NCBI GenBank assembly: GCA_036382875.1
Contig: DASVPJ010000042.1
Location: 51,859-115,858, forward strand
Direction of reading: 5' to 3'
Origin: Mycobacteriales bacterium
GTDB lineage: Bacteria > Actinomycetota > Actinomycetes > BP-191
DNA length: 64,000 nucleotides
Under the pieces are notes generated by a model that worked only from the letters and a program-made list of their open reading frames with translations, ran no database searches and was not told where the DNA came from. Position numbers and translations under genes: made by a program. Below are positions 7,974 through 22,666 of this stretch, piece by piece. The number at the start of each line of letters is the position of its first letter. Positions within the stretch are counted from its first letter, which is position 1.

Positions 7974-8843
7974 ATGCTCCTGGACGAGGCCCTGGACCGG
8001 GCCTACGCGGCGTGCCGCCGCGTCAACGCGCGGACCGGGCGGACGTTCTACCTCGCCACGCTGCTGCTCCCGCCGGAACGCCGCCGCCACGTGCACGCGC
8101 TCTACGCGTTCGCCCGCTGCGCCGACGAGATCGTCGACGCGCCGGGGGTCCCGGACCGCGCGGAGCGGCTCGCGCGGTGGGGCGCGACGCGCGGCGGCGA
8201 GACGCCGGTGGGCGTGGCGTTCCGCGACACCGTCGCCCGCTGGTCGATCGCGGAGGCGGACGTGGACGCGTTCCTCGCGTCGATGGCGATGGACCTGACG
8301 GTCACGTCCTACCCGACGTACGCCGACCTGCTCCGCTACGCGCACGGCTCGGCCGCCGTCGTCGGCCGCTGGACGGTGCCGGTGCTCGGCGCGCTGGACG
8401 ACGGCGCGTACGCGTACGCCGAGGACCTCGGCGTCGGCTTCCAGCTCGCGAACTTCGTCCGCGACGTCGGCGAGGACCTGCGCCGCGGCCGGCTCTACCT
8501 GCCCGAGGAGGACCTGGCGCACTTCGGCGTCACGCGCGCCGACCTCGCGTCCGGCGTCGTGGACGGGCGGGTGCGCCGGCTCCTCGCGTACCAGGTCGCC
8601 CGGGCCCGCGAGGTGCTGCGCGCCGCCGAGCCCGGCATCCGGCTGCTGCACCCGGCCAGCCGGGACTGCGTGCGCACCGCGCTCGTCCTCTACGGCGGCA
8701 TCCTCGACGCCGTCGAACGCGCCGACTACCGCGTGCTGGACCGGCGGGTCTCGGTCGGGCTCCCCCGCCGCGCGGCCGTGGCGGCGCCCGCGCTGGTGCG
8801 CGCGGGTTTCGCGCGGCGGGCGGGGGCAAGACAACCGGTATGA
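7974..8843 (+). CDS. crtB: Phytoene synthase
   Basis: Squalene/phytoene synthase motifs (YAFARCADEIVD, ANFVRDVGEDLRRGRLYLP). Confidence 0.85.
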   Translation: MLLDEALDRAYAACRRVNARTGRTFYLATLLLPPERRRHVHALYAFARCADEIVDAPGVPDRAERLARWGATRGGETPVGVAFRDTVARWSIAEADVDAFLASMAMDLTVTSYPTYADLLRYAHGSAAVVGRWTVPVLGALDDGAYAYAEDLGVGFQLANFVRDVGEDLRRGRLYLPEEDLAHFGVTRADLASGVVDGRVRRLLAYQVARAREVLRAAEPGIRLLHPASRDCVRTALVLYGGILDAVERADYRVLDRRVSVGLPRRAAVAAPALVRAGFARRAGARQPV

Positions 8844-9034
8844 CGCAGCCGACCGAGACGCCGCCCGCCGAGGGCTCGACCGAGATGGTCCGGCACGAGC
8901 ACAGCAACGACGCGAACTCCGGGCCGGTCGCGGGCAACCGCACGCCGATGGTCGTGGCGTTCGTCGCGCTCGGGCTGCTCCTGCTGCTGATCGTGCTCGC
9001 GATCGTCAGCGGCCTCATCGAGATCTCGCGGTAG
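8840..9034 (+). CDS. Small single-pass membrane protein (64 aa)
   Basis: The ATG overlaps the crtB stop (ATGA). One clear TM helix, MVVAFVALGLLLLLIVLAIVSGLI. Confidence 0.4.
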   Translation: MTQPTETPPAEGSTEMVRHEHSNDANSGPVAGNRTPMVVAFVALGLLLLLIVLAIVSGLIEISR

Positions 9035-9045
9035 CGTCGGCGGCC

Positions 9046-9813
9046 GTGCGGGCCGCGCTGCTCACCCCCCGCCGCGTCGCGGCCGCGCTGGCGCTCGTCC
9101 TGGCCGGCGACGCGTTCCTGCTGTTCGGCGACACCGCGCGGCCGGTGTCCGTGGCGGCCGCCGTCGCGGCGTACCGGCACGGCGAGTACGCGACGTTCGC
9201 GCCGCTGCCCGCGTCCGGCGTGTACGTCTACGACACCACGGGCTACGAGCGGGTGGACCGGCTGTCGATCCGCCGCACGTACCCGGCGGTCACCACGCGG
9301 ACGATCCGCGCGGCGGCGTGCGGGATGCGAGAGACGGTCACCATCTTCCGCGAGCACGTCGAGCAGTACGGCGTCTGCCACGACGGGACCGACATCCGCG
9401 AGTGGGCGTTCGGGACGCGGCTGACGTACTACCGCGTCACGTCGGCCATGTGGCTCGAGTGCGGGCACGGGGGGACGCGGGTCGCGGGCGGCGCGCCGGC
9501 CGGGACGGTGGCGACGTACGAGTGCGCGGGCGACGGGACGTCCGCGACGGTGACCGTGACGGTGCTGGGCGACGGGCTGGTGCCGGTCGGCGACCTGGGC
9601 GAGGTGCCGTGCCGGCGGCTGGCCGTGCAGACCGTGCTGCGCGGCGCGAACGCCGGCGGCGCGACGCGCACGCTGTGCACCGACCCGCGGACCGGGCTGG
9701 TGCTGACGGAGGAACGCTCGGTCGGCGTGACGACGCGGAGCGCGTTCGTGGGCCGGGTGACCTACACCGAGCGGGCGGCGTTCCGGCTGCGGTCGCTGGT
9801 GCCGGAGACGTAG
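9046..9813 (+). CDS. Hypothetical secreted protein (signal peptide; Cys-containing)
   Basis: GTG start. N-terminal signal-like segment AAALALVLAGDAFLL. No recognised domain. Confidence 0.45.
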   Translation: MRAALLTPRRVAAALALVLAGDAFLLFGDTARPVSVAAAVAAYRHGEYATFAPLPASGVYVYDTTGYERVDRLSIRRTYPAVTTRTIRAAACGMRETVTIFREHVEQYGVCHDGTDIREWAFGTRLTYYRVTSAMWLECGHGGTRVAGGAPAGTVATYECAGDGTSATVTVTVLGDGLVPVGDLGEVPCRRLAVQTVLRGANAGGATRTLCTDPRTGLVLTEERSVGVTTRSAFVGRVTYTERAAFRLRSLVPET

Positions 9814-9817
9814 GGCG

Positions 9818-10717
9818 TCACCGCGGGCCGACCGGACGGCCCTTCCAGGTAGCGCGGCCGGGCCACCGCCGGACCGCGACCAGCAGCGCCTCGGCGAACG
9901 GCGCCGCCACCGCCGGCCACACCGGCGCCCGCGCGACGGCGCGGGCGGCGGCGCTCACCGCGACCTGCGCGGCGTAGCCGGCCGGCGTGCAGGCCGCCGC
10001 CAGCCACAGCGCCTCGCGCCACCCCGGGGGCACGGCGCCGCGCGAGCGGTGCAGCCCGCGCAGCGCGGCCGGCAGCGAGCCGTACATCGCCACCGTGAAC
10101 AGGTCCGGCCCGAGCACCGCGCTCGTCGCGTGCCGCGCCGCGACGGCGCGGGCCAGCGCGACGTCCTCGACGACGGCGTACGGCTCGTGGCCGGGGTACG
10201 CGTCGCGGCGGACGAGCAGGCACTGCCCGTTCGCGAACGGCGCCGGGTCGCGCCGCGCCAGCGACAGCCCGACCTCCGGCAGCAGCCACGCGGTCCCGGC
10301 CGTGGGGGTGGCGACGCGGCCGTACGCCGTCACCAGCGCCGCACCCGTGTCGTCGGCCTCGGCGAGCAGCCGGGACAGCGCGTCGGGCGCCACCGTCACG
10401 TCGGCGTCCACGAACCACAGCCACGCCGGCTTCCCGGCGGCCGCCGCGCCCGCCCGGCAGGCCGCCGCCTTCCCCACCTGACCCGGGCGCAACGGCGGCG
10501 CCGCCACCACCCGCGCCCCCGCCTCGCGCGCGACCCGGGCCGTCGCGTCCGACGACACGTCGTCCACCACGACGACCTCGCGCACGCCGGCCGCGAGGAG
10601 CGAACGGACGCAGCCGCCCACGTGGCGTTCCTCGTCCCGCGCCGGCACGACCGCGACGACGCCGGCGGTCACGAAACCGAGGGTGCGCGGCGCCCGCCGC
10701 CGCGCGAACCGCGCCAT
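9818..10717 (-). CDS. Glycosyltransferase family 2
   Basis: GT2 signature VVAVVPARDEERHVGGCVRSLL...VVVVDDVSSD...DADV. Start taken at the internal Met (MARFARRR...) rather than the ORF's upstream Met. Confidence 0.65.
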   Translation of the reverse strand: MARFARRRAPRTLGFVTAGVVAVVPARDEERHVGGCVRSLLAAGVREVVVVDDVSSDATARVAREAGARVVAAPPLRPGQVGKAAACRAGAAAAGKPAWLWFVDADVTVAPDALSRLLAEADDTGAALVTAYGRVATPTAGTAWLLPEVGLSLARRDPAPFANGQCLLVRRDAYPGHEPYAVVEDVALARAVAARHATSAVLGPDLFTVAMYGSLPAALRGLHRSRGAVPPGWREALWLAAACTPAGYAAQVAVSAAARAVARAPVWPAVAAPFAEALLVAVRRWPGRATWKGRPVGPR

Positions 10718-10780
10718 CCGCGACACGCCCCACGCGGTGACGGCGAGGGCGGCGACGTCGCGGCGCTGCACACTCGCAGC

Positions 10781-11392
10781 ATGGACGACCTCGACCGGTG
10801 GTGCGCGCTGCACGCGTTCGAACGCCACCGCGCCGGCCCGATCCTCCGCACGTACGTGCGCGCCACGTACGCGCTCGCCCGCCGGTTGCCGCCGTGGCCC
10901 GCGCTGGTCACCGCGGCGGGCGTCGCGCTCGCCGCTGCCTCCGTCTCCCTCTACGGCTCCGCGCCGGCGGCGGTCGCGATCCTGCTGTCCGGCGCCGCCG
11001 ACGGGCTCGACGGCGCGGTCGCGGCGGTGCGCGGCCGGGCGACGACGTTCGGCGCCGTCCTCGACTCCACCGCCGACCGGGTCGCCGACCTCGCGCTGCT
11101 GCTCGGCCCGGCGCTGCGCGTGCGGGACGCCCGGGCGGCGCTCGTCGCGGCCGGAGCGGGGACGTTCCTGCTGGAGTACGTCCGCGCCCGCTGCCAGGCG
11201 GTCGGCCTCACCACCCGCCAGCCGGTCACGCCCGCCGAGCGGCCGGTCCGCGTCGTCGCGGCGGCGGCGCTCGCGCTCAGCCCGGGGGCCTGGACGTGGG
11301 GCGGCTGGGCGCTCGCGGCGCTCACCGTCCTCAGCGCCGGGTGGCTCCTGACCGACGCCCGAGCCAGGTCCACCACAGCAGCGTCTGGGTGA
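10781..11392 (+). CDS. CDP-alcohol phosphatidyltransferase family membrane protein
   Basis: Motif DGLDGAVAAVRGRATTFGAVLDSTADRVAD fits D-x2-DG-x2-A(R)-x8-G-x3-D-x3-D. Multi-TM. Confidence 0.55.
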   Translation: MDDLDRWCALHAFERHRAGPILRTYVRATYALARRLPPWPALVTAAGVALAAASVSLYGSAPAAVAILLSGAADGLDGAVAAVRGRATTFGAVLDSTADRVADLALLLGPALRVRDARAALVAAGAGTFLLEYVRARCQAVGLTTRQPVTPAERPVRVVAAAALALSPGAWTWGGWALAALTVLSAGWLLTDARARSTTAASG

Positions 11393-11633
11393 CCATCGCC
11401 CACCCGAACGCCAGGTCCTCGACCGGCGCGCACGCGACCCGCGGCCCGAGCGTGGTCCGGTAGTCCGTCACGATGCCGCGGCAGGTCAGCACGCCGTTGA
11501 CGAGGAGCTGGAACGCCACCACGACGGCGTAGGCGACCCAGTACGCCCGCCGGCGCAGCAGGCCGGTCCGCAGCACCGCCTCGAGGCCGACGGTCGCGAG
11601 CAGGCCGAGGGCGGCGAGTGCGGGGTAGCTCAC
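11331..11633 (-). CDS. crtYd: Lycopene cyclase domain protein (heterodimeric lycopene beta-cyclase subunit)
   Basis: About 100-aa membrane protein adjacent to crtYc. Its GTG start overlaps the crtYc stop. Confidence 0.65.
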   Translation of the reverse strand: MSYPALAALGLLATVGLEAVLRTGLLRRRAYWVAYAVVVAFQLLVNGVLTCRGIVTDYRTTLGPRVACAPVEDLAFGWAMVTQTLLWWTWLGRRSGATRR

Positions 11634-11941
11634 TCGCCGTCCCCCAGCACCCGGCGCACCGCCTCGTACGTCAGCAGCGCGCACGTCGGGACCACGACGA
11701 AGAACGCCACCTCCTCCAGCGGCAGGTTCGCGACCGCGACGCCGAGCGTCTGCGCGGGGTCGTAGCGCCAGTGCCGCCGCGCGACGGCGTAGACGTCCCA
11801 GGCGCCGAACGCCACCACCACCGGCAGCAGCGACAGCAGCCACCGCCGCGGCCGCCGGTACACCCGCGCGCGGAACACGAGCTCCAGCGGCAGCGTCACC
11901 GCGACGCAGGCCGCGAGCAGCAGGGCGTAGGACGCTCGCAC
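11630..11941 (-). CDS. crtYc: Lycopene cyclase domain protein (heterodimeric lycopene beta-cyclase subunit)
   Basis: 103-aa membrane protein, MRASYALLLAACVAVTLPLELVFRARVYRR..., typical of actinobacterial CrtYc. Confidence 0.7.
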   Translation of the reverse strand: MRASYALLLAACVAVTLPLELVFRARVYRRPRRWLLSLLPVVVAFGAWDVYAVARRHWRYDPAQTLGVAVANLPLEEVAFFVVVPTCALLTYEAVRRVLGDGE

Positions 11942-11976
11942 GGCCGGTCACGCTAGCCGTAGGTAGAGTCGGCCGC

Positions 11977-12882
11977 GTGACGCCCACCCGCCGCGCCCTG
12001 CTCCGCGCCGCCCTCGCCACGCCGCTGCTCGCCGCCTGCGCCGGCAAGGACAAGCCGAAGGCCGAGCCCACGTCCTCGGCCAACCTGGCGCTCGAGAACG
12101 TCGGCCAGCACGCCGCCCCGGGCCTGCAGATCGGCGAGGCCGAGGCGGAGGTCGTGGCGGGCCAGGCGCGGTACGCGTTCGGGCTCATCGGCCCGGACGG
12201 ACCGCTCGCCGGCGCCACGGTCAAGGTCTACCTGGGCCGCGAGGCGACCGCGCCGCCGGAGGCCACCGTCGACGCGCGCGAGCTGGAGGACGAGGGGCTC
12301 GCCGACCGCGGGCTGTACGCGGCGACGCTGCCGTTCCCGGCGCCCGGCAAGTACCTGCTGGCCATCGTCGCGGAGACGCCGAACGGCGCGTTCAAGGGCG
12401 GCATCGCGGTCGACGTGCTCGCGACGTCGAAGTCGCCGATCCCCGGCCAGAAGGCGGTGTCGGTCAAGACGCCGACGACGAAGGACCCGGCGGGCGCGAG
12501 CCCGCTCTGCTCCCGCCGCCCGAACGCCTGCTCCATGCACGCGATCTCGCTCGACGCGGCCATCGCATCGGGGAAGCCGACGGTCGTGGTGTTCGCGGCG
12601 CCGGCGTTCTGCCAGACCGAGCTGTGCGGGCCGGACGTGGACATCCTGGAGAAGGTCGCGCGGCGGCACGCCGGGAAGGCGAACTTCGTCCACGTCGAGG
12701 CCTACGTCGGCGCCACCACGCCGACCAACGGCAAGCTCGCGCCGGCGCTCAAGGCGTACCGGTTCGACTCCGAGCCGTGGCTGTACTTCATCGACGCGAA
12801 GGGCATCGTGAGCGACCGCATCTCGGCGGCGTTCGTGACCTCAGAGGTCGAGGAGCGGCTCGCGAAGCTCGGCGTCGCGTAG
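11977..12882 (+). CDS. Tat-signal lipoprotein with a thioredoxin-like/TlpA-like domain
   Basis: N-terminus [20 protein letters not shown] has a twin-arginine motif plus a lipobox Cys. A FCQTELC motif is present. Confidence 0.5.
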
Positions 12883-13500
12883 CCGCTCCGACAGCGCGCG
12901 CGCGGCCGCGGCCGGGTCGGCCGCCTCGGTCAGCGCGCGCACCACGACGACCCGCCGGGCGCCGCGGCGCAGCACCTCGTCGAGGTTCGTCGCGTCGATG
13001 CCGCCGATCGCGAACCACGGCCGCGGCGTCCGCAACGACGCCACGTGGTCCACCAGCTCGGGCCCGGCGGCCGGGCGGCCCGGCTTGGTCGGCGTCGCCC
13101 ACATCGGCCCCGCGCAGAAGTAGTCCACGCCCTCCGCCGTCGCCGCGGCGGCGACCTGCGCCGGCGAGTGCGACGACAGCCCGACCAGCGTCTCGTCGCC
13201 GACCACGTCGCGCGCCACGCCCACCGGCAGGTCGCCCTGGCCGAGGTGCAGCACGTCGGCGCCGACCGCGCGCGCGACGTCGGCGCGGTCGTTGACGGCG
13301 AACAGCTTCCCGTGCGCCCGCGCCCGCTCGCGCATGACGGTCAGCAGCTCGATCTCCTCGCGCGCCTCGATGCCCTTCTCGCGGAGCTGCACGACGTCGA
13401 CGCCGTTCGGCAGCACCGCGTCGAGGAACTCGGCGAGGTCCGGCCGCCGGCCGACGCACAGGTACAGCCGGGCGTCCGCCAGCGCCGCCCGCCTATCCAC
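12841..13500 (-). CDS. thiE: Thiamine-phosphate synthase
   Basis: 219-aa protein with typical ThiE sequence ([35 protein letters not shown]). Confidence 0.8.
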
Positions 13501-13693
13501 CCGCCACCGCCCGGACGATCTCCAGCACGTCGCCGTCGGCGAGCGTGGTCCGCTCGGTCTCCGACCGCAGCAGCGCGACGCCGTTGCGCTCGACCACGAC
13601 CCACCCGGCGCCGAGGCCGAGGTCGGCGAGCAGCGCCGGCAACGTCGTGCCGTCGGGCAGGTCGCGGTCGGCGCCGTTCACGCGGACCCGCAT
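13493..13693 (-). CDS. thiS: Sulfur carrier protein ThiS
   Basis: 66 aa, MRVRVNG...[12 protein letters not shown] with a C-terminal Gly-Gly. Overlaps the thiE start. Confidence 0.75.
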
Positions 13694-14142
13694 CAGTACC
13701 GGCCGCCGAGCTTCGCGTGGTCCCACGACACGACCCGCTCCGGCACGAACCGCAGGCCGACGAAGCCCGCCACGCCCCGCGCGCGCGCCGCCTCGCGCCC
13801 GGCGGGCACGTCCTCCGGTCGCACGCCCAGGTACTTCACGGCGAGCGCCGCGCCGAGGTCGAGCAGCTCCTCCACGCCGTCGAACGTCTCCACCCGGCCG
13901 GTGAGCTGCACGCCGCGCATGTCGGCGTACGCCTCGCCGCCCTCCACGAGCACGGCGGCGCGCGGGTCGCGGCGCAGGTTCACCGCCTTCTGCGACTTGG
14001 CGAACGTCCGCATGAGCAGCTCGCCGCCGTCGGCGACGACGTACCACATGGGCAGCGGGTCGGGGACGCCGTCCGGCCCGCTCGTGGCCAGCACCGCGAC
14101 GCGGCCGTTCGCGAGGAACTCCCGGACCTCGGCGTCCGTCAT
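13693..14142 (-). CDS. PPOX-class (pyridoxamine 5'-phosphate oxidase-like) probable F420-dependent oxidoreductase
   Basis: 149 aa, MTDAEVREFLANGRVAVLATSGPDGVPDPLPMWYV..., a hallmark PPOX split-barrel N-terminus. Confidence 0.6.
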   Translation of the reverse strand: MTDAEVREFLANGRVAVLATSGPDGVPDPLPMWYVVADGGELLMRTFAKSQKAVNLRRDPRAAVLVEGGEAYADMRGVQLTGRVETFDGVEELLDLGAALAVKYLGVRPEDVPAGREAARARGVAGFVGLRFVPERVVSWDHAKLGGRY

Positions 14143-14171
14143 CACGATCTCGGGTCGGCGGTTCGGCACGG

Positions 14172-14522
14172 TCAGAAGCCCAGCGCCTGCGCCCGGCGCT
14201 TCACCTCGGTGCCGCGGTTCTCTCGCAGCGCCTCGATCGGCGAGCCCGGCAGGTCGTCGTCGGTGAACAGCCAGCCGATCGCCTCGGCGTCGCCGTAGCC
14301 GTTGTCGCGCAGCAGCGTGATGACGCCCGGCAGGTGCTTCACGATCGCGCCGTCCTGCACGAACGCCGCCGGGATCGTCAGCGGCGCGTCGTCGCCCCGC
14401 CGGATCGCGAGCAGCTTCCCCTCGCGCAGGTGCTGGCGCACCTTCGTCACCTCGACGCCGAGCGCCTCGGCGACGTCGGGCACGGTCGCCCACTCGATCG
14501 CCAGCGCCGTGATGTCGGCCAC
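14172..14522 (-). CDS. Rv2175c-family DNA-binding protein
   Basis: VADITALAIEWATVPDVAEALGVEVTKVRQHLREGKLLAIRRGD... resembles M. tuberculosis Rv2175c. GTG start with a GAGGAG RBS. Confidence 0.6.
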   Translation of the reverse strand: MADITALAIEWATVPDVAEALGVEVTKVRQHLREGKLLAIRRGDDAPLTIPAAFVQDGAIVKHLPGVITLLRDNGYGDAEAIGWLFTDDDLPGSPIEALRENRGTEVKRRAQALGF

Positions 14523-14561
14523 GTCCGCCCTCCTCGTTCCTCCCCTACTAGTCTGCCGCGC

Positions 14562-15089
14562 ATGTACTCCGGCTCGCTCGTCCGGCTGCGCGCGCCGGAG
14601 CCGCGCGACGTGCCGGACCTGCACCGCTGGTCGAACGACCCGGCCGTCGCCTCGCTCGCCGGCGTCCGCTACCCGGTGCCGCTCGGGGCGGAGAGCGACT
14701 GGGTCGAGCGGGCGGGCGTGGGCTCGTACGCCAACTGCCAGTTCGCCGTGGAGACCCTCGACGGCGGCGTGCTGCTCGGCACCTGCTGGCTGTCGGAGAC
14801 GGCGTTGCCGGAGAACCGCTGCGCGCAGCTCGGCATCTTCCTCGGCGACCCCGCGCGGCACGGCCGCGGCTACGGCACCGACACGGTGCGGACGCTGTGC
14901 CGCTTCGGGTTCGACGAGATGAACCTGCACCGCATCGAGCTGCTGGTGTTCGCCCACCACGCCGCCGCGCGGCGGGTGTACGAGAAGGCCGGCTTCGTCG
15001 AGGAGGCGTACTCGCGCGAGGCGCACTGGGGCGACGGCGCGTGGTGGGACGACGTGCTGATGTCCCTGCTCGAGGGCGAGCTGCGGTGA
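14562..15089 (+). CDS. GNAT family N-acetyltransferase (RimJ/RimL-like), paralog 1 of 4
   Basis: Acetyl-CoA-binding motif RHGRGYGT. The N-terminal motif RLRAPEPRDVPDLHRWSNDP is conserved among the four paralogs. Confidence 0.75.
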   Translation: MYSGSLVRLRAPEPRDVPDLHRWSNDPAVASLAGVRYPVPLGAESDWVERAGVGSYANCQFAVETLDGGVLLGTCWLSETALPENRCAQLGIFLGDPARHGRGYGTDTVRTLCRFGFDEMNLHRIELLVFAHHAAARRVYEKAGFVEEAYSREAHWGDGAWWDDVLMSLLEGELR

Positions 15090-15604
15090 ACGGCGCCCTC
15101 GTCCGGCTGCGCCCGATGGAGCCGGCCGACGCCGAGGCGCAGCACCGCTGGCGCAACGACCCGGACGTGACGGTGTGGACCGGCTGGCGCTACCCGATCG
15201 CGCGGGCGGCGATCGCGCAGCGGATCGTCGGGCCGATGTCGTTCGCGAACCCGCGGTTCTCCGTCGAGCGCCTCGACACCGGCGAGCTGGTCGGCTACAC
15301 CGCGCTGCGCGACGTCACGCCCGAGTCGCGCAACGGCGAGCTCGACCTGGTGATCGGCGAGCGTTCGGCGTGGGGGCAGGGCTTCGGCACGGACACGGCG
15401 CGGACGATCTGCGCGTACGCGTTCGAGCGGATCGGGCTGCACCGCGTGCAGCTCTGGGTCGTCGCGTCGCACGCGCCGGCGATCCGGGCGTACGAGAAGG
15501 CCGGCTTCGTGCCCGAGGGCGTGGCGCGGCAGCGGTTCTACAAGCGCGGCGCCTGGCACGACGCGCTGCTGATGGCCCGGCTGGCGCCGGGACCGCGCCC
15601 GTGA
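15086..15604 (+). CDS. GNAT family N-acetyltransferase, paralog 2 of 4
   Basis: GTGA overlap with the previous gene. RLRPMEPADAEAQHRWRNDP...WGQGFGT. Confidence 0.75.
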   Translation: MNGALVRLRPMEPADAEAQHRWRNDPDVTVWTGWRYPIARAAIAQRIVGPMSFANPRFSVERLDTGELVGYTALRDVTPESRNGELDLVIGERSAWGQGFGTDTARTICAYAFERIGLHRVQLWVVASHAPAIRAYEKAGFVPEGVARQRFYKRGAWHDALLMARLAPGPRP

Positions 15605-16110
15605 TCGCCGGGTCGCTCGTCGCGCTGCGCGAGCGCCGCCCGGCGGACGTGCCGGTCGCGCGCGCGTGGTTCGCCGACCCCGAGGCGATGCGCTGGACGC
15701 TGCGGACCTACCCCGGCGGCGAGTACGACGTGCCGCGCGAGCCGCTCGGCTGGGGCACCGTCCCGCTGACCGTCGTGGACCTCGCGTCGGGCACGCCGAT
15801 CGGGCACTGCGGGCTCGGCGAGATGTCCGCCGAGCACCGCCGGGCGCTGGCCTGGCTCACCATCGGCGAGGCGGCGTACCGCGGCCGCGGCTACGGCACC
15901 GACGCGATGCGCACCCTGTGCCGGTGGGCGTTCGACAGCGTGAACCTCGCCAAGGTGGAGCTCGAGGTGATCGCCGACAACGCCGCCGCCGTCGCGGTCT
16001 ACGAGCGCGTCGGCTTCGTCCGCGAGGTCGTGCGGCGGCGGGCGCTGTGGGTGGACGGCGCGTGGCGCGACGAGTACCTCATGGGCCTGTTCCCCGAGGA
16101 GCTGCGGTGA
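15601..16110 (+). CDS. GNAT family N-acetyltransferase, paralog 3 of 4
   Basis: GTGA overlap. ALRERRPADVPVARAWFADP...RGRGYGT. Confidence 0.75.
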   Translation: MIAGSLVALRERRPADVPVARAWFADPEAMRWTLRTYPGGEYDVPREPLGWGTVPLTVVDLASGTPIGHCGLGEMSAEHRRALAWLTIGEAAYRGRGYGTDAMRTLCRWAFDSVNLAKVELEVIADNAAAVAVYERVGFVREVVRRRALWVDGAWRDEYLMGLFPEELR

Positions 16111-16613
16111 CCGTCGTGCTGCGGGCGCGCGAGCCCGCCGACGCGGCGCTGCTGGCGTCGTGGTTCGGCGACGCGGAGACGATGCGCTGGTGGGACCGCG
16201 TGTACCCGCCGCTGCCCGCCGAGGTCATGGCGGAGCGCATCGCGGCGGAGCCGCCGGTGGGGTTCGGCTCGCTGTCGTTCATGGTCGACGCGGGCCGCGA
16301 GACGGTCGGCTGGGGCGGGCTGCACCACCCGTCGCCGGAGCACCGGCACTGCGGGCTCGGCGTGCTGGTCGGGCCGGGGCACCGCGGCCGCGGCCACGGC
16401 GAGGCGGCGACGCGGGCGCTGTGCCGGTTCGCGTTCGACCGGATGAACCTGGTCCGGGTGTCGCTCACGGTCTTCCCCGGCAACGACGTCGCGCGGCGGG
16501 TCTACGAACGCGTCGGCTTCGTCGAGGAGGGCGTGCAGCGGCGGGCGTTCTGGAAGCGCGGCGAGTGGCACGACCTCGTGCACATGGCGGCGTTCCCGGA
16601 CACGCTGCGCTAG
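16107..16613 (+). CDS. GNAT family N-acetyltransferase, paralog 4 of 4
   Basis: GTGA overlap. [22 protein letters not shown]...RGRGHGE. Confidence 0.75.
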
Positions 16614-17593
16614 ATCGCCACCGGGGTGCCGGTGGCCGCCGACTCGAACGCCGCGTCCAGCACCTGCGCGGTGGCCCGCGACTCGGCAAGCGGCAGCACC
16701 CAGGCGTCGCGCCCCTCGGCGGCGGCGGAGACGTTCTCGACCATCAGCCGGTACGCGTTCGCCGGCGCGATCCGCTCCGTGCCGCGCGAGACGGCCAGCT
16801 CGGTCTCCTCGCCGTCCCACGCGGTGAACGGGTGCCCGCGCAGCTCCAGCTCGCCGCGGGCGCCGACCACGACGAGCCACTGCCGCGGCTCCTCGGCGAT
16901 CGACGCGCGGACGTCGGCCGCGCCCCCGTCGAACGCGATCGTCACCGTCGCGGTGCGGTCGACGCCGGTGGGCCCGAGCTCGCACGTCGCGGTGACCTCG
17001 CGCGGCGGCGTGCCGAACGCCCACAGGGCGGCCGACACGGCGTAGCAGCCGACGTCGTAGAGCGCGCCGCCGCCCTTCGCCGGGTCGAGGCGGTAGTTGC
17101 CGTCCGCGACGCCGGCGAACGTGAAGCCGGCCGAGACGTAGCGCGCCGCGCCGACCGCGTCGACCTCGTGCAGCAGCCGGTGCGCGAGCCGGACCCGCGG
17201 GTGCCAGCGGTACCACGACGCCTCCACCAGCAGCCGGTCGTTGGCGACCGCGGCCTTCGCCATCTCGTCGACCTCCGCGACGGACAGCGCGAGCGGCTTC
17301 TCGCAGAGCACGTGCTTGCCGGCCTCCAGCGCGGCGATGGCGTACGGCGCGTGGGCGTCGTTGGCGAGCGCGACGTAGACCGCGTCGACGTCGTCGTCGG
17401 CGAGCAGCGCCTCGTAGTTCGGGTGCGCGACCGCGGCGCCGAAGTCGTCGCGGGCCGCGCGGGTGCGCGACGGGTCGCGGCTCGCGACGGCGTGCAGCGC
17501 CGCGCCGTCCGCCGTCGCGATCGCGTGCAGCATCGCGTTGCGCGCGATCATCCCGGCGCCGAGGACGCCCCACCGTACGGTCACGGGCGTCAC
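16610..17593 (-). CDS. Gfo/Idh/MocA family oxidoreductase
   Basis: N-terminal Rossmann fold [12 protein letters not shown]...EKPLALS. Confidence 0.75.
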
Positions 17594-17650
17594 CCTAGGC
17601 GGGCGCGGCGACGCGCCGCGGCGCGCGACGCTGGCGCACGCGCGCCAGGG

Positions 17651-18178
17651 TCACGTCTGGGTCCGCAGCCACTCCTCGTACGCCGCCTCGTTGTCCCGCT
17701 CCTCGTCCAGCCGGCGGTGCACCACGTCCCACAGCGCGACGGTCCGCCACTCGCGGAACGCCCGCCGCGCGGCCAGCAGCATGATCGCCGCGCCCGCGAC
17801 GACGAGCAGCGCGACCGGCCCGAGGTACGCCGCCTGCGCCGCGTTCGACGGCGCGCCCAGCGCGAGCAGCGGCAGCACGACGCCGACGCCGAACACCAGC
17901 CCGACCAGCGCGAACACCGCCGGGATCTCGCGCGGGAACCGCTCGGCCTGCCGGCGGTCGTCCAGCACGCGCAGCTCCCACAGCGCCTCGTACGCCCGCT
18001 CGTGCAGCCCGGACGTGTGGGCGATCGACCACGAGCGTTGCAGCCGGTCGAGCGCGCTCGCGGCGTCGCGCCAGTCCGCGATGTAGGAGGAGAGGCGGAC
18101 CAGCAGGAACGCGCCGAGGAAGCCGACGAGGCTCGCGGTGACCTGCGCGAGGCTCGAGTAGAACCACTCCGGGCTCAT
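17651..18178 (-). CDS. Hypothetical membrane protein (175 aa)
   Basis: The ATG overlaps the thiH stop (ATGA). Two or three predicted TM segments. Confidence 0.45.
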   Translation of the reverse strand: MSPEWFYSSLAQVTASLVGFLGAFLLVRLSSYIADWRDAASALDRLQRSWSIAHTSGLHERAYEALWELRVLDDRRQAERFPREIPAVFALVGLVFGVGVVLPLLALGAPSNAAQAAYLGPVALLVVAGAAIMLLAARRAFREWRTVALWDVVHRRLDEERDNEAAYEEWLRTQT

Positions 18179-19287
18179 CGCGAGACCAGGGGGAACGCGT
18201 CCTTCCAGACCGGCTCGTAGCCGGCCTCCTCGAGCATCCGCGCGACGTCGGCCGGCGAGCGCTCGTCCGAGACGGCGAACTGCTCCTGCGCCTCGCCGGG
18301 GTGCGAGTAGCCGCCCGGCTCGGTCGAGGAGCCGGCGCTCAGGTGGGTGACCGCGATGCGGACGAGCCCGTCGCGCAGCGCGGCCGGCTCGCGGGTGGAC
18401 AGCACGATGCCGGCCTCGGGCTCGTAGAGGCGCAGCGCGGCGAGCGCCTGCACGTACTGCCGGTCGGTGACCGGCACCAGCGGCTGGTAGCCGGACGCGC
18501 TCGGCTTGATGCGCGGCAGCGCGACCGTCACCTCGGTGCGCCACCAGCGCCGGACGAGGAACGCCGCGTGCGCGCCGACCGCGAGGACGTCGGCGCGCCA
18601 GTCCTCGGCGAGGCCGAGCAGCGCGCCGAGGCCGAGCCGGCGGACGCCCGCGTCGGCGGCGCGTTCGGTGGAGGCGAGGCGGCGGTCGAAGTCGCGCTTC
18701 CAGCCCGCGACGTGGACCTCGCGGTAGCGCGCCCGGTCGTACGTCTCCTGGTAGTGCACGACGCCCTCGACGCCCGCCGCGACCAGGCGGGCGTAGGTGT
18801 CGTCGCTCCACGTCTGGGTCTCGATCGAGATGCTCGGGACGAACGCCGCCAGCCGCTCGACGACCTCCACGAGGTAGTCCTGGCTCACCTCCAGCCGGTG
18901 CTCGCCGGCGACGAGCAGCAGGTGCCGGAAGCCGCGTTCCGTGAGCAGCCGCGCCTCCGCCTCGACCTCGTCGGGCGTCAGCGTGCGGCGGGTCACGTCG
19001 AGGCCCTTGGCGAAGCCGCAGTACGTGCACGTGGACAGGCAGGCGTTGGAGACGTAGAGCGGCGCGAACAGCCGCACCGCCTTGCCGAACCGCGTCGTCG
19101 TCAACGCCGCCGCCGCCTGGGCCAGCTCCTCGACCCGCTCCTCCGCGCGCGGCGAGAGCAGCGCGGCGAGGTCGCGCAGGTCACGCCGCTCGCGGCGCAG
19201 CGCGGCGGTGACGTCGGCGTCGGTGGCGTCGAGCGCGGAGAGCGTGCCGAGGTCGAGGCCGGCCAGCTCGGCGGCGAACTCCGTCAC
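18175..19287 (-). CDS. thiH: 2-iminoacetate synthase (radical SAM tyrosine lyase)
   Basis: Radical-SAM motif [16 protein letters not shown], typical of ThiH. Adjacent to thiG. 370 aa. The GTG start overlaps the thiG stop. Confidence 0.7.
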
Positions 19288-20060
19288 GACAGGAACCCGG
19301 TCAGCGGGCTGCTCGCCTCCGCCTCGCCGCGTACCGCGGCGCGGCCGGCGTGCCAGGCGAGGCGGCCGGCCTCGACGCCCTGGGCGAACGCCCGCGCCAT
19401 CAGCACCGGGTCGCGCGCCACCGAGATCGCGGTGTTGACCAGGCACGCGTCGGCGCCGATCTCCATCGCGGCCGCCGCGTCGCTCGGCACGCCGAGCCCG
19501 GCGTCCACGACCACCGGCACGGTCGCCTGCGCGACGATGATCTCGATCGCGTCGCGGGTCCGCAGGCCGCGGTTCGAGCCGATCCACGAGCCGAGCGGCA
19601 TGACCGTGGCGCAGCCCGCCTCCTCCAGCCGCTTGCAGAGCACCGGGTCGGCGGAGCAGTACGGGAGGACGGTGAACCCGTCGTTCACCATCAGCTCGGC
19701 GGCCCGCAGCGTCTCGATCGGGTCGGGCGCGAGCCAGCGCGGGTCCGGGGTGACCTCCAGCTTCACGAAGTCCGGCATCCCGCCGGCCCGGGCGAGCCGG
19801 GCCAGCCGCAGCGCCTCCTCGGCGTTGACCGCGCCGGAGGTGTTCGGGAGGAGGAGCACGTGCTCCGGCAGGAAGTCGAGGATGTCGCCCTCGCCGGCCT
19901 TGGTGACGTCCACCCGGCGCAGCGCGACCGTGACGATCTCGGTGCCGCTCGCCTCGACCGCCGCGCGCATCACGGCGTGCGACGGGAACTTGCCCGTGCC
20001 GAGCAGCAGCCGCGACGCGAACGAGCGCGTGCCGATGACGAGCGGGTCGTCGGGGGTCAC
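19284..20060 (-). CDS. thiG: Thiazole synthase
   Basis: 257-aa protein with typical ThiG sequence ([28 protein letters not shown]). Confidence 0.85.
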
Positions 20061-20071
20061 GACTGACCAGC

Positions 20072-20185
20072 CTACGCGTCGGGTCCGCGGCCCCGGACGC
20101 GACGGAGCAGGACGGCCGCGACGACGAGGAGCACGGCGACGACGCCGACCGTCTGGGGCAGGCCGGTGCTCGCGAGGACGTCCAT
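20072..20185 (-). CDS. Possible small hydrophobic peptide (37 aa) upstream of thiG
   Basis: ATG-initiated [40 protein letters not shown]. No RBS or homology support. Confidence 0.2.
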
Positions 20186-20195
20186 GGCCGCCACG

Positions 20196-20531
20196 CTAGA
20201 TGCCCGGGTCGGCGAGCCGCAACGAGTTGAGCCGGGTCTCCGTCGCGTCGATCTGCGCGACGACCGACGCGACGCTCGGCGGGACGGCCACGTCGGCGTC
20301 GCTGTACAGGAAGATGTTGAGGACGTCGTTCGCGCCGACCTGCAGGCCGCGGGTCACGCAGTACTCCCCCAGCGCGAACTCCCACGAGAACACCCCGCCC
20401 GACTCGTCGTCGGCGACGTGGCAGTAGTACGTGAGGAACCGGTTGCCCTGCAGCGCGTAGTGGCGCACGCCGCCGCGGCCCTCCGACTGGAAGACGAACC
20501 CGATCGACTCCAGGTCGTCGACGAACGCCAC
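20196..20531 (-). CDS. Hypothetical protein (111 aa)
   Basis: GTG start with a strong RBS AGGAGGTA. Non-biased amino-acid composition, unlike the GC-frame artefacts. Confidence 0.5.
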   Translation of the reverse strand: MAFVDDLESIGFVFQSEGRGGVRHYALQGNRFLTYYCHVADDESGGVFSWEFALGEYCVTRGLQVGANDVLNIFLYSDADVAVPPSVASVVAQIDATETRLNSLRLADPGI

Positions 20532-20534
20532 GCG

Positions 20535-21485
20535 CTACCTCCTGCGGACGACCGGATCCACGCCGTTCACCACATCCTGCACGGGCTCGCCGGAGACCGC
20601 CCGGCGGAGGTTCGCCTGGACGGCGAGCGCGATCCGCAGCCGGGCCTGCGCCGTCGCGCCGGCCACGTGCGGCGACAGCAGCACCCGGTCGTGCGCGCGC
20701 AGCGGGGAGCCCTCCGACAGGGGCTCGCTGTCGTAGACGTCGAGCGCGGCGCCGAGCAGGTGCCCGTCGTCCAGCAGCCGGAGCAGCGCGTCCTCGGAGA
20801 CGATGCCGCCGCGCGCGGCGTTGACCACCACCGCGCCGGGCGGCAGCCGCCGCAACGCCTCCTCGCCGAGCAGCCCACGGGTCGTCTCGCCGAGCGCGAT
20901 GACGACGACGAGCACGTCGCTGCGCGCGAGCAGCTCGTCCAGCTCTGGCAGGCAGGCCGGGTCGCCCGGGCGCGGGGTGCGCGTCCAGTACGCGACGTCG
21001 CAGCCGAACGCGCGGAACCGTTCGGCGCACAGCGCGCCGATGGCGCCGTAGCCGACGATGCCGACCCGCCGCCCGGCCAGCTCCAGGCAGCCGCGGGCGG
21101 CCAGGTCGAGCTGCGGCCACCGCCCGGCGCGCACCTCGGCGTCGGCCCACAGCAGGCTGCGGCTCGCGGCGAGCGCGGCCATGACGCACCACTCGGCGAC
21201 GGCGACGGCGTTGACGCCCGCGGTGTTGGCGACGGGGATGCCGGCCGCCGCGCACGCGGCGAGGTCGAGGTGCTCGACGCCGACCGTCGGCTGCTGCACG
21301 AACGCCAGCCGCGGCGCCGCGGCCACCAGCGCCGCGTCCACCTTCAGCAGGCCGGTGAAGTCGCCCAGCAGCAGGTCGGCGTCGGCGACGGCCGCGCGGG
21401 CGGCCTCGGAGGTCCGTTCCTCGGGCACGACGACCGAGACGGGCAGGTCCGGGGCGAAGCCGCGCACCGCCTCGGCGGGCATCGG
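20535..21485 (-). CDS. D-isomer-specific 2-hydroxyacid dehydrogenase
   Basis: NAD-binding motif GIVGYGAIG plus a catalytic His region. About 316 aa from the internal Met. Confidence 0.7.
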   Translation of the reverse strand, partial: PMPAEAVRGFAPDLPVSVVVPEERTSEAARAAVADADLLLGDFTGLLKVDAALVAAAPRLAFVQQPTVGVEHLDLAACAAAGIPVANTAGVNAVAVAEWCVMAALAASRSLLWADAEVRAGRWPQLDLAARGCLELAGRRVGIVGYGAIGALCAERFRAFGCDVAYWTRTPRPGDPACLPELDELLARSDVLVVVIALGETTRGLLGEEALRRLPPGAVVVNAARGGIVSEDALLRLLDDGHLLGAALDVYDSEPLSEGSPLRAHDRVLLSPHVAGATAQARLRIALAVQANLRRAVSGEPVQDVVNGVDPVVRRR

Positions 21486-21709
21486 GACCAACGCGGCCAG
21501 CCGCCACTCGCGGTCGGGGTCGGGGTCGGGCTGCACGCCCGCACCGTACGACGCGCGCGGCCCTGCCCGGAGCGGTTGCCGTCCCAGGAGCACCACTTGT
21601 CACATCTGTCCCACGTCGCGTACCGTCCTCGGGTGCGGCAGGGGAAGGCCGCCTCGCGTCCGCGCGCGATCAGTCCGGGTCGCGCCGCTGCCCAGAGGCA
21701 CTACCGCTG

Positions 21710-22636
21710 ATGACCGAGCCGACCGACACCACGACCGTCCACGCGCCCGCCCCGTCGCGGGGCGCCGCGCGGCCGACCGCGCCGCGCCGCCGCGCGCTGC
21801 GCGTCCTCCTCGTGCCGCTCCTCCTCGCGCTCGTCGCGGGCGCGTCGGCGAGCGGGTGGGTCCGGGTGCGCCGCGGCGACACGCTGAGCGAGCTCGCCCG
21901 CGAGCACGGCACGACGGTCGAGGCGCTGCGCACGCTCAACAAGCTGCCCGGCAACAACCTCATCTACGAGGGCCAGCTCCTGCGCGTCGGCACCGTCCCG
22001 ACCGTCGCGACGAGCGCCCCGAAGGCGCGGCCGACGAGCAGGCGGGTGGACGTGACGTACGTCGTCCGCCCGGGCGACGGCGTGTACCGCATCGCCAGCC
22101 GCTACCGCGCCGACCCGAAGTGGATCGCGCGGATCAACCACCTCCCGAGGTCGTGGATGGTCCACCCCGGGCAGCGCCTCGTCGTGGGCTTCGCGTACGT
22201 ACGGATCGCCGCGCCCGCGACGCGGCAGGCGGGCCGGCGGGTGCCGAAGCCGTACGTTCGCGACCTCGTCGTGCGCAACGCCCGCCGCTACGGCGTCGAC
22301 CCGGCGCTCGCGCTGGCGCTGGCGTACAACGAGTCGGGCTGGCAGCAGCACGTGGTGTCCAGCGTCGGCGCGCTCGGCGTCATGCAGGTGATGCCCGGCA
22401 CCGGCGAGTGGGTGTCGCGCTACCTCGCCGGGCGGCGGCTCGACCTGCGCGACGTGGAGGACAACGTCGAGGCGGGCGTGCGGTACTTCGCGCTGCTGCG
22501 GCGGGTGGCCGGGCGCGACGACCTCGCGCTGGCCGGCTACTACCAGGGCCTGGCGAGCGTCCGGAAGCGCGGGATGTACGACGACACCAAGGCGTACGTC
22601 CGCAACATCCTCGCGCTGCGCGGGCGCTTCGCCTGA
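21710..22636 (+). CDS. LysM-domain lytic transglycosylase (two LysM plus an SLT domain)
   Basis: LysM repeats (RRGDTLSELAREHGTTVEALRTLN; VRPGDGVYRIASRY) and the SLT motif AYNESGWQ...GALGVMQVMP. Confidence 0.75.
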   Translation: MTEPTDTTTVHAPAPSRGAARPTAPRRRALRVLLVPLLLALVAGASASGWVRVRRGDTLSELAREHGTTVEALRTLNKLPGNNLIYEGQLLRVGTVPTVATSAPKARPTSRRVDVTYVVRPGDGVYRIASRYRADPKWIARINHLPRSWMVHPGQRLVVGFAYVRIAAPATRQAGRRVPKPYVRDLVVRNARRYGVDPALALALAYNESGWQQHVVSSVGALGVMQVMPGTGEWVSRYLAGRRLDLRDVEDNVEAGVRYFALLRRVAGRDDLALAGYYQGLASVRKRGMYDDTKAYVRNILALRGRFA

Positions 22637-22666
22637 GCCGTACACACGGAAGCGGCACCTAGACTC

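Follow-up and report, generated by a model that had tools for sequence, protein, structure and literature searches.

A probable lineage-conserved operon of four paralogous GNAT acetyltransferases beside an Rv2175c-like gene in Mycobacteriales

Why would an actinobacterial chromosome carry four related acetyltransferase genes end to end, each overlapping the next? We addressed this question for a 64,000-nucleotide stretch of DNA from an uncultured member of the Mycobacteriales (the window, in what follows). The four genes, here called GNAT1 to GNAT4, occupy positions 14562 to 16613 of its plus strand. The explanation that we favor, with a probability of roughly 85%, is a chromosomal four-cistron operon of paralogous Acetyltransf_3 N-acetyltransferases that is conserved within its lineage and lies divergent from the gene of an Rv2175c-like regulator. 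Within this operon, the second gene is set apart by the repeated loss of catalytic motifs among its orthologues.

Four overlapping paralogous genes

The genes and their matches to the Pfam family PF13302 (Acetyltransf_3) are as follows.

14562 to 15089, plus strand: GNAT1, the first cistron, 175 amino acids, ATG start; PF13302 at 81.4 bits; record HEX8004308.1, "GNAT family protein"
15086 to 15604, plus strand: GNAT2, 172 amino acids, GTG start within a GTGA overlap with GNAT1; PF13302 at 82.2 bits
15601 to 16110, plus strand: GNAT3, 169 amino acids, GTG start in a GTGA overlap; PF13302 at 66.6 bits
16107 to 16613, plus strand: GNAT4, 168 amino acids, GTG start in a GTGA overlap, TAG stop; PF13302 at 77.4 bits

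All four proteins pass the curated cut-off of PF13302, which is 25.4 bits (range 66.6-82.2 bits). A preliminary description of this stretch had placed four genes of one GNAT subfamily here and had dismissed a single mis-split gene, and the four separate open reading frames (ORFs) with their Pfam matches bear it out on both counts. It had also stated that each gene starts with a GTG lying over the previous stop. This is correct for GNAT2 to GNAT4, whose GTG starts overlap TGA stops in the tetranucleotide GTGA (15086-15089, 15601-15604 and 16107-16110), but not for GNAT1, which starts with ATG (14562-14564) and has no gene ahead of it on the plus strand. The public NCBI records of the proteins (HEX8004308.1-HEX8004311.1) carry the name "MAG TPA: GNAT family protein [Mycobacteriales bacterium]", and the JGI label is "RimJ/RimL family protein N-acetyltransferase". 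Identical DNA occurs on a metagenome contig in ENA (L001). The numerous long ORFs in alternative frames are by-products of a GC content of ~75%.

The four proteins share 39-45% pairwise identity and 38 invariant alignment columns, and a DNA segment of 240 nucleotides recurs in four copies with a period of 503-512 nucleotides and 60-72% identity. Because of the protein identity and the repeated DNA segment together, the paralogy that the preliminary description had proposed is far beyond what chance would produce in such sequences. The N-terminal motif that it had given for all four proteins, RLRxxEPxDxxxxxxWxNDP, is exact in GNAT1 and GNAT2, but is degenerate in GNAT3 and GNAT4. The core that is invariant across the four is L-R-x3-P-x-D-x6-W-x2-D.

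As that description had also stated, the acetyl-CoA-binding motif is conserved. The glycine-rich loop between beta4 and alpha3 (motif A) is intact in GNAT1 to GNAT4, where it reads HGRGYG, WGQGFG, RGRGYG and RGRGHG, respectively. All four also have a tyrosine in motif B (YEK/YER) that aligns with Y134 of the acetyltransferase SpeG. Both motifs are thus intact in the window's GNAT2 (WGQGFGT and YEKAGF), the protein that becomes most relevant below. Because the loop for the acetyl-CoA pyrophosphate and the general-acid tyrosine are kept, each of the four proteins would be expected to move an acetyl group from acetyl-CoA onto an amine, whether of a small molecule, of a peptide or of a protein.

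We modeled the structures of GNAT2 and of one orthologue, P0033. The AlphaFold2 model of GNAT2 has a GNAT alpha/beta fold, with a predicted local distance difference test score (pLDDT) of 88 and a predicted template modeling score (pTM) of 0.86. A Foldseek comparison of this model with the PDB retrieved GNAT enzymes at template modeling scores (TM) of 0.75-0.86.

Conservation, putative expression signals and history of the array

Orthologues of GNAT2 form a sharply bounded group at 54-82% identity, and the next relatives are at most 40% identical. Four metagenome-assembled genomes (MAGs) of uncultured bacteria, named "Frankiaceae bacterium", are the only species-representative genomes that have them. 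Scans with profiles of GNAT2 orthologues yielded four loci from genome contigs and one from metagenome contigs, and other loci were found by exact look-up. The resulting set comprises nine further distinct loci from uncultured Frankiaceae or Mycobacteriales MAGs (L003-L006, L007, L008, L009, L010 and L012), shorter copies of two of these (L011 of L010, L013 of L012) and two four-gene loci that were added later (L019 and L020).

Seven of the nine further loci contain four GNAT genes in the same order, as do the two later additions, so that L003, L005, L007-L010, L012, L019 and L020 all follow the window's arrangement. In these arrays, each gene matches its positional counterpart in the window best; the identities at positions 1 to 4 are, for instance, 75, 81, 73 and 84% in L003 and 64, 56, 63 and 61% in L005. 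L004 and L006 have the genes of positions 1 and 2 only. Across ten distinct loci, the window included, the genes overlap at every internal junction (25/25), either by the four nucleotides RTGA (-4) or by the one nucleotide shared in TGATG (-1).

The GC content is flat across the array (0.73-0.77), and synteny between loci extends to the flanking genes, which include thiamine and carotenoid genes. These two properties indicate that the array is native and old. A horizontally acquired island, which we also considered, was rejected because of the same flat GC content and conserved synteny.

The features that adjoin the array in the window are these.

14549 to 14554, plus strand: putative -10 hexamer TAGTCT (TANNNT), 7 nucleotides upstream of the GNAT1 ATG
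14523 to 14561: divergent intergenic region of 39 nucleotides between the Rv2175c-like gene and GNAT1
14172 to 14522, minus strand: gene of an Rv2175c-like winged helix-turn-helix (HTH) protein, not a GNAT, 116 amino acids; PF18367 at 93 bits, PF21531 at 58 bits
16610 to 17593, minus strand: gene of a GFO/IDH/MocA oxidoreductase, convergent with GNAT4, with which it shares 4 nucleotides; PF01408 at 99 bits

The preliminary description had identified the two flanking genes, Rv2175c-like and MocA, as they are found here, but the two differ in their association with the array. The Rv2175c-like gene, which has a GTG start with GGAGG ahead of it, is the divergent neighbor in every further distinct locus that extends far enough on that side (11/11), among them the distant locus L015; in L007, its presence is deduced from conserved upstream sequence alone. 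By contrast, MocA is not a conserved partner, since in L003, L005, L008, L009, L010 and L012 it either lies apart from the array or has been replaced. In L008, a gene resembling SGL/strictosidine synthase lies downstream of the array, and in L010 there is a GH15 gene followed by a DUF2254 gene.

The preliminary description had put forward that the array is absent from the corresponding region of M. tuberculosis. In mycobacteria, the gene that the literature places divergent from Rv2175c is pknL and not a GNAT gene, and the PknL kinase phosphorylates Rv2175c and lowers its DNA binding (PMC8408660). The GNAT operon thus occupies, beside the Rv2175c-like gene, the place of mycobacterial pknL. Given its position, the Rv2175c-like protein is a candidate regulator of the operon. 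In L006 (6619-7428), L012 (4347-5219) and L020 (1596-2465), GNAT1 is separated from the Rv2175c-like gene by an inserted alpha/beta-hydrolase gene (Peptidase_S9/Abhydrolase), and the same is probable for L019, where the contig stops within the hydrolase gene (3-356). This insert is confined to exactly the clade whose GNAT2 lacks the glycine loop (see below). In L004, the spacing of GNAT1 and the Rv2175c-like gene is larger by ~540 bases (6930-7470), and a small ORF within this additional DNA has a protein-like composition (…MLGKTVGDVRGQSISTRILPD…).

The short upstream region contains one conserved element. In all 10 aligned loci, the sequence TAG(T/G)(C/G)T is followed, after 6-7 nucleotides, by ATG or GTG, and the remaining upstream region is not conserved. 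Three loci have TAGGGT or TAGTGT, and the others have TAGTCT. No Shine-Dalgarno sequence is present between this box and the start codon in the aligned loci. In mycobacteria, the -10 motif (T)ANNNT is located at -6 to -13 from the transcription start site (PMC6448022). Given the conserved TAGTCT-N7-ATG arrangement, the missing Shine-Dalgarno sequence and a spacing that fits the mycobacterial -10 motif, the GNAT1 cistron is most likely leaderless, with the 5′ end of the transcript at the start codon and TAGTCT as its putative promoter element. Transcription would then begin at the GNAT1 ATG, and ribosomes would re-initiate at the RTGA stop/start overlaps to translate cistrons 2 to 4, which would lead to joint production of the four proteins.

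A scan for intrinsic terminators found none in 14100-17700. At the far end of the array, the tetranucleotide CTAG (16610-16613) reads TAG on both strands and provides the stops of GNAT4 and the convergent MocA gene. A terminator would not fit here, and the GNAT4 and MocA transcripts must therefore overlap in antisense at their 3′ ends.

We built a neighbor-joining tree of the array members, 40 outside relatives taken from an exhaustive profile search and two further arrays. Positional groups 1, 2, 3 and 4 have bootstrap values of 100, 92, 100 and 99%, respectively. Positions 3 and 4 are sisters (94%), whereas an exclusive clade of positions 1 and 2 and an exclusive clade of all four each receive 0%, with outside relatives interleaved among them. 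On the basis of these bootstrap values, we conclude that GNAT3 and GNAT4 are a pair duplicated in situ, and that GNAT1 and GNAT2 are older paralogues with relatives elsewhere. The term "diverged tandem duplicates" in the preliminary description therefore applies cleanly to GNAT3 and GNAT4, but not to GNAT1 and GNAT2. Among the four, GNAT1 is nearest to the wider family.

The tree and the positional orthology indicate that the duplications are ancient and not a local burst, and that the array consists of four old orthologue lineages. The origin of all four genes in one local burst had been backed by a first, small tree, and we dropped it when the 40 outside relatives were added (0% bootstrap). 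Recent or decaying duplicates were rejected because of positional orthology across loci together with ratios of nonsynonymous to synonymous substitution (dN/dS) below 1. The two-gene loci L004 and L006 are nested among four-gene relatives, and therefore GNAT3 and GNAT4 were lost twice.

Related arrays exist beyond this set. A more distant syntenic locus, L015 (4470-5525), has the same Rv2175c-like, MocA and thiH context, and its two GNAT genes stand in the opposite order of types, GNAT2-like first (55% identity) and GNAT1-like second (49%). An unrelated contig with a GC content of 68%, L018 (1968-4726), has an array of its own that consists of four GNAT1-like genes with GTGA or ATGA overlaps, and no Rv2175c-like gene is present on that contig. 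The 371-amino-acid first gene of L018 was considered as a two-domain fusion and rejected, because it contains one GNAT domain only (residues 197-365); its start is probably over-called. With the arrays of L015 and L018 taken together, tandem amplification is evidently a habit of this subfamily.

Natural fusions of two to five GNAT domains account for 39 of the best 150 family representatives. Relatives with three to five tandem domains include P0161 (857 amino acids), P0124 (754 amino acids), P0123, P0139 and P0168. The domains of P0124 are joined by long linkers of low complexity, and this protein may be eukaryotic.

We now note the remaining properties of the neighborhood. The thiamine genes of the window are split around the array. 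On one side are thiE, thiS, a PNPOx-like gene and the Rv2175c-like gene (12841-14522, minus strand; 3756-5437 in L001), and on the opposite side are a gene for a membrane-like hypothetical protein of 175 amino acids, thiH (radical SAM/BATS) and thiG (17651-20000, minus strand; 8566-10975 in L001). All of these thiamine-side genes are on the minus strand, and the GNAT genes alone are on the plus strand. The PNPOx-like gene is missing from L005, L006, L008, L009 and L010. An Rfam scan of 8000-24000 detected no RNA, including no thiamine pyrophosphate riboswitch, and a tRNA search of the window found none.

A pair of hypothetical genes (encoding ~200 and ~60 amino acids) lies directly downstream of the array, on its strand, in six loci: L003 (9595-10155), L006 (8593-9377), L009 (7564-8363), L012 (7559-8340), L019 (2500-3281) and L020 (4586-5385). 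The pair is 37-67% identical between loci, has no match in Pfam or PADLOC and is missing from the window.

Loss of catalytic motifs at position 2

Is the array maintained by selection, and equally so at each position? Between close loci, dN/dS by the Nei-Gojobori method is 0.22-0.79 for the GNAT genes versus 0.08-0.52 for neighboring genes, and all of these ratios are inflated, since dS is compressed to ~0.25-0.45 by the extreme GC content at third codon positions. The ratios indicate that all four GNAT genes are under purifying selection. The thiamine genes are more strongly constrained, and other accessory genes about as strongly as the GNAT genes.

The catalytic motifs, by contrast, are not equally kept. 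We grouped the orthologues of each position into clusters at 90% identity. The glycine loop and the tyrosine are both present in every cluster at position 1 (40/40), position 3 (24/24) and position 4 (56/56). At position 2, the loop or the tyrosine is lost in 20 of 48 clusters, versus 0/120 at the other three positions (Fisher p = 4e-13). Defects of the loop comprise ten cases with a deletion of one to five residues and one with a G-to-N replacement; the tyrosine is lost in eleven clusters, which have C, G, A or F instead, and one cluster has both defects. Because the kinds of defect differ between sub-lineages, we conclude from the alignments that they arose repeatedly, in L010-type, L012-type and L006-type forms and in separate losses of the tyrosine.

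The defective genes are still full-length, overlapped ORFs. In six comparisons of four loop-less GNAT2 copies (from L006, L012, L019 and L020), dN/dS is 0.29-0.44, which matches the range of intact GNAT3. A segment between beta3 and beta4, LRDVTPESRxAELDL, is almost invariant at position 2. The loop-less orthologue P0033 is predicted to adopt the GNAT fold (pLDDT 93), with its beta4-alpha3 loop cut to two residues. Both two-gene loci, L004 and L006, combine an intact GNAT1 with a motif-defective GNAT2.

This pattern hints at a partly non-catalytic role of the position-2 protein, and the simplest such role would be that of a partner to a catalytic paralogue. Alternatively, it could reflect relaxed selection on a partly redundant enzyme.

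Enzyme family and possible functions

No characterized family model of NCBIfam reaches its cut-off with any of GNAT1 to GNAT4. The AAC(6') model NF000225 (AAC_6p_Strep) is the best NCBIfam match of GNAT1, GNAT2 and GNAT3, yet at 40-69 bits (highest for GNAT2, at 68.6) the scores fall far short of its cut-off of 250, and the proteins are not members. Two other AAC(6') models, NF012165 (cut-off 280 bits) and TIGR04431 (260 bits), score below 68.6 and are likewise not reached. The SpeG model PRK15130 scores 23.4, 35.1, 40.7 and 39.8 bits for GNAT1 to GNAT4 against a cut-off of 218. Where they are listed, RimJ (PRK10809) scores 19-23 bits against 190 and RimI (TIGR01575) 27-33 against 86.4. The characterization of the array as "RimJ/RimL-like" in the preliminary description consequently does not hold beyond the Pfam family label.

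By sequence, the closest solved relatives are SpeG, YdaF of B. subtilis and a "putative acetyltransferase" of B. cereus (E = 1e-11 to 1e-22). SpeG (PDB 4jjx, 6vfn, 3tth and 8fv0) is the best profile match among solved structures (E = 3.5e-22). It has the same fold as the GNAT2 model (TM ~0.8, 24-26% identity), and it shares with GNAT1 to GNAT4 a size of ~170 amino acids, the glycine-rich acetyl-CoA loop and the tyrosine equivalent to Y134. In SpeG of V. cholerae, which has acceptor and allosteric glutamates, the change E72Q reduces kcat for spermine more than 300-fold (PMC13212360). The acceptor residues E72, E75 and E84 and the allosteric residues E33, E34, E37 and E41 are mostly missing here. 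In GNAT1 to GNAT4, the position of E72 has W, A, G and G, that of E75 has E, D, E and H, and that of E84 has Q, E, L and G; in GNAT1, the four allosteric positions have R, Y, P and E. These assignments depend on the alignment, as they were made in pairwise HMMER alignments and carried across the alignment of the four proteins. In addition, SpeG is encoded by a single gene and forms a homododecamer, whereas we find four coupled paralogues. Because no NCBIfam model reaches its cut-off and the acceptor glutamates of SpeG are not kept, we assign GNAT1 to GNAT4, from their sequences, to an uncharacterized subfamily of Acetyltransf_3 GNATs.

Other known systems resemble the array in part. An iterative acetyltransferase of lasso peptides (PDB 9iy3; bioRxiv 10.1101/2024.12.31.630886), which also comes from an actinomycete, is the top match of the GNAT2 model (query TM, TMq, of 0.86; 28% identity) and a profile match with E = 4e-17. 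However, 28% identity is too low to infer orthology, and the called neighbors of the array are thiamine, carotenoid and oxidoreductase genes. No Pfam families of lasso cyclases or proteases were present among the called neighbors within ~6 kb of the array, the stretch to which this search was limited. RimJ, RimL, RimI and YdaF (PDB 1nsl) share the Acetyltransf_3 family, and YdaF is the best PDB match of GNAT4 (E = 5e-13). Unlike the four-gene array, RimJ, RimL and RimI are normally encoded by single, dispersed genes. PDB entries 6erd and 8q6u are "AAC(6')" by sequence label and were deposited as "putative acetyltransferase".

A further parallel is provided by fused tandem GNATs. MshD is a two-domain GNAT with one non-catalytic domain. 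In MshD and multi-domain relatives, paralogous modules stand side by side and one may lose catalysis. In the window, by contrast, the modules are separate overlapping genes, none of which is degenerate, and the fused relatives are not orthologues.

Some observations weigh against the reading as a four-cistron operon. A scan of 14100-17700 with an E. coli-type sigma-70 consensus found no promoter, and the transcription start site is placed by prediction. The relatively high dN/dS ratios may signify weak constraint. The failure of every characterized NCBIfam model to reach its cut-off, described above, also counts here, and the source genome is a MAG.

If the four genes are an operon, what do the proteins do? 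The preliminary description proposed diversification toward several related substrates, and in this reading the four would be independent enzymes that diverged toward acceptors such as antibiotics (aminoglycosides or streptothricin), polyamines or ribosomal proteins. We consider this plausible, if somewhat short of probable. It agrees with the intact catalytic motifs of all four window proteins, and also with conserved sequences at the N terminus and on the acceptor side that are particular to each positional group, such as a 12-residue segment in position 4 and the absence of three residues in position 3. The best sub-threshold NCBIfam matches (AAC(6') of Streptomyces, SpeG and PseH) and the nearest solved structures (SpeG, YdaF and the lasso-peptide acetyltransferase) also point in this direction, but the AAC(6'), SpeG and RimJ scores are all far under their cut-offs and E72, E75 and E84 of SpeG are not conserved. 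Moreover, a simple scan for specificity-determining positions found only 5 that are clearly group-specific, which is too thin for inferring pockets, and the retention of motif-defective GNAT2 copies is left unexplained. That retention is what a hetero-oligomer would account for, for example one with GNAT1-GNAT2 and GNAT3-GNAT4 modules, in which GNAT2 would serve mainly to bind substrate or to support the structure and could do without catalysis of its own, and in which translational coupling would set the stoichiometry. We put this forward tentatively. In its favor are the several independent motif losses confined to position 2 (20/48 versus 0/120), the loop-less copies that remain intact, overlapped and constrained (dN/dS 0.29-0.44) and of which P0033 folds confidently in prediction (pLDDT 93), and the near-invariant LRDVTPESRxAELDL segment. 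The pairing of intact GNAT1 with defective GNAT2 in L004 and L006, the joint loss of GNAT3 and GNAT4 on two occasions and the fusion of two to five GNAT domains in 39 of the best 150 family representatives fit as well. Several points weigh against it: the window's GNAT2 is catalytically intact by its motifs, the joint loss could be a single deletion of adjacent genes, 4-nucleotide overlaps are common in high-GC operons regardless of complex formation, the fused relatives are distant and not orthologues, and relaxed selection on a redundant enzyme could likewise remove motifs. It is accordingly doubtful, though possible, that this is a heteromeric GNAT assembled from separate paralogous subunits, in which GNAT2 can turn into a pseudoenzyme yet stay folded, selected and coupled to a catalytic GNAT1. 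In our literature searches on tandem-gene GNAT heteromers, we came across no bacterial case in which several genes encode the subunits and one of these is a pseudo-GNAT. Such a heteromer refines the operon explanation and does not exclude it.

Two further proposals start from the Rv2175c-like neighbor. By analogy with PknL, which modifies Rv2175c from the divergent position in mycobacteria (PMC8408660), the GNATs might acetylate the Rv2175c-like regulator. The divergent arrangement in 11/11 further distinct loci reaching that side is consistent with this, but the proposal has only gene position behind it, one clade tolerates an alpha/beta-hydrolase gene between the partners, the related four-gene array of L018 has no Rv2175c-like neighbor, and divergent pairs are more often a regulator and its target operon than an enzyme and its substrate. 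We therefore regard it as unlikely. It is still harder to sustain that the proteins are GNAT toxins of the TacT/AtaT type, which acetylate aminoacyl-tRNA, with an HTH antitoxin, or that they form a phage-defense module, and we consider this very improbable. A small HTH gene does adjoin the array, and its product has a weak PADLOC match to "mad1" (E = 1.7e-6), which is limited to the HTH region (residues 12-46) and probably reflects nothing more than a resemblance common to HTH proteins. However, 0/4 GNAT proteins match any PADLOC model, and the HTH gene is divergent instead of co-transcribed upstream and belongs to a family conserved across Actinobacteria. The locus is also syntenic and chromosomal, among thiamine genes and with a flat GC content, and four copies in a fixed order are not the architecture of a toxin-antitoxin system.

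The four-cistron operon of paralogous N-acetyltransferases thus remains our preferred explanation of the locus. GNATs are among the most numerous unassigned enzymes of actinobacteria, and most carry only the label "GNAT family protein", as GNAT1 to GNAT4 do. The locus amounts to a clean natural experiment, with four old paralogues in a fixed, coupled order and one position that repeatedly loses its catalytic apparatus under selection. This decay at position 2 is the one feature worth an experiment, and the rest of the locus is mostly ordinary. If GNAT2 is not a subunit of a heteromer, the array would be an ordinary acetyltransferase operon in an uncultured soil lineage, and its value would lie mainly in correcting name transfers of the "RimJ/RimL" and "AAC(6')" types. 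If a heteromer with a pseudo-GNAT subunit does exist, tandem GNAT genes would be read as subunits and not as a redundant or multi-substrate set, and there would be a simple sequence rule for spotting such cases.

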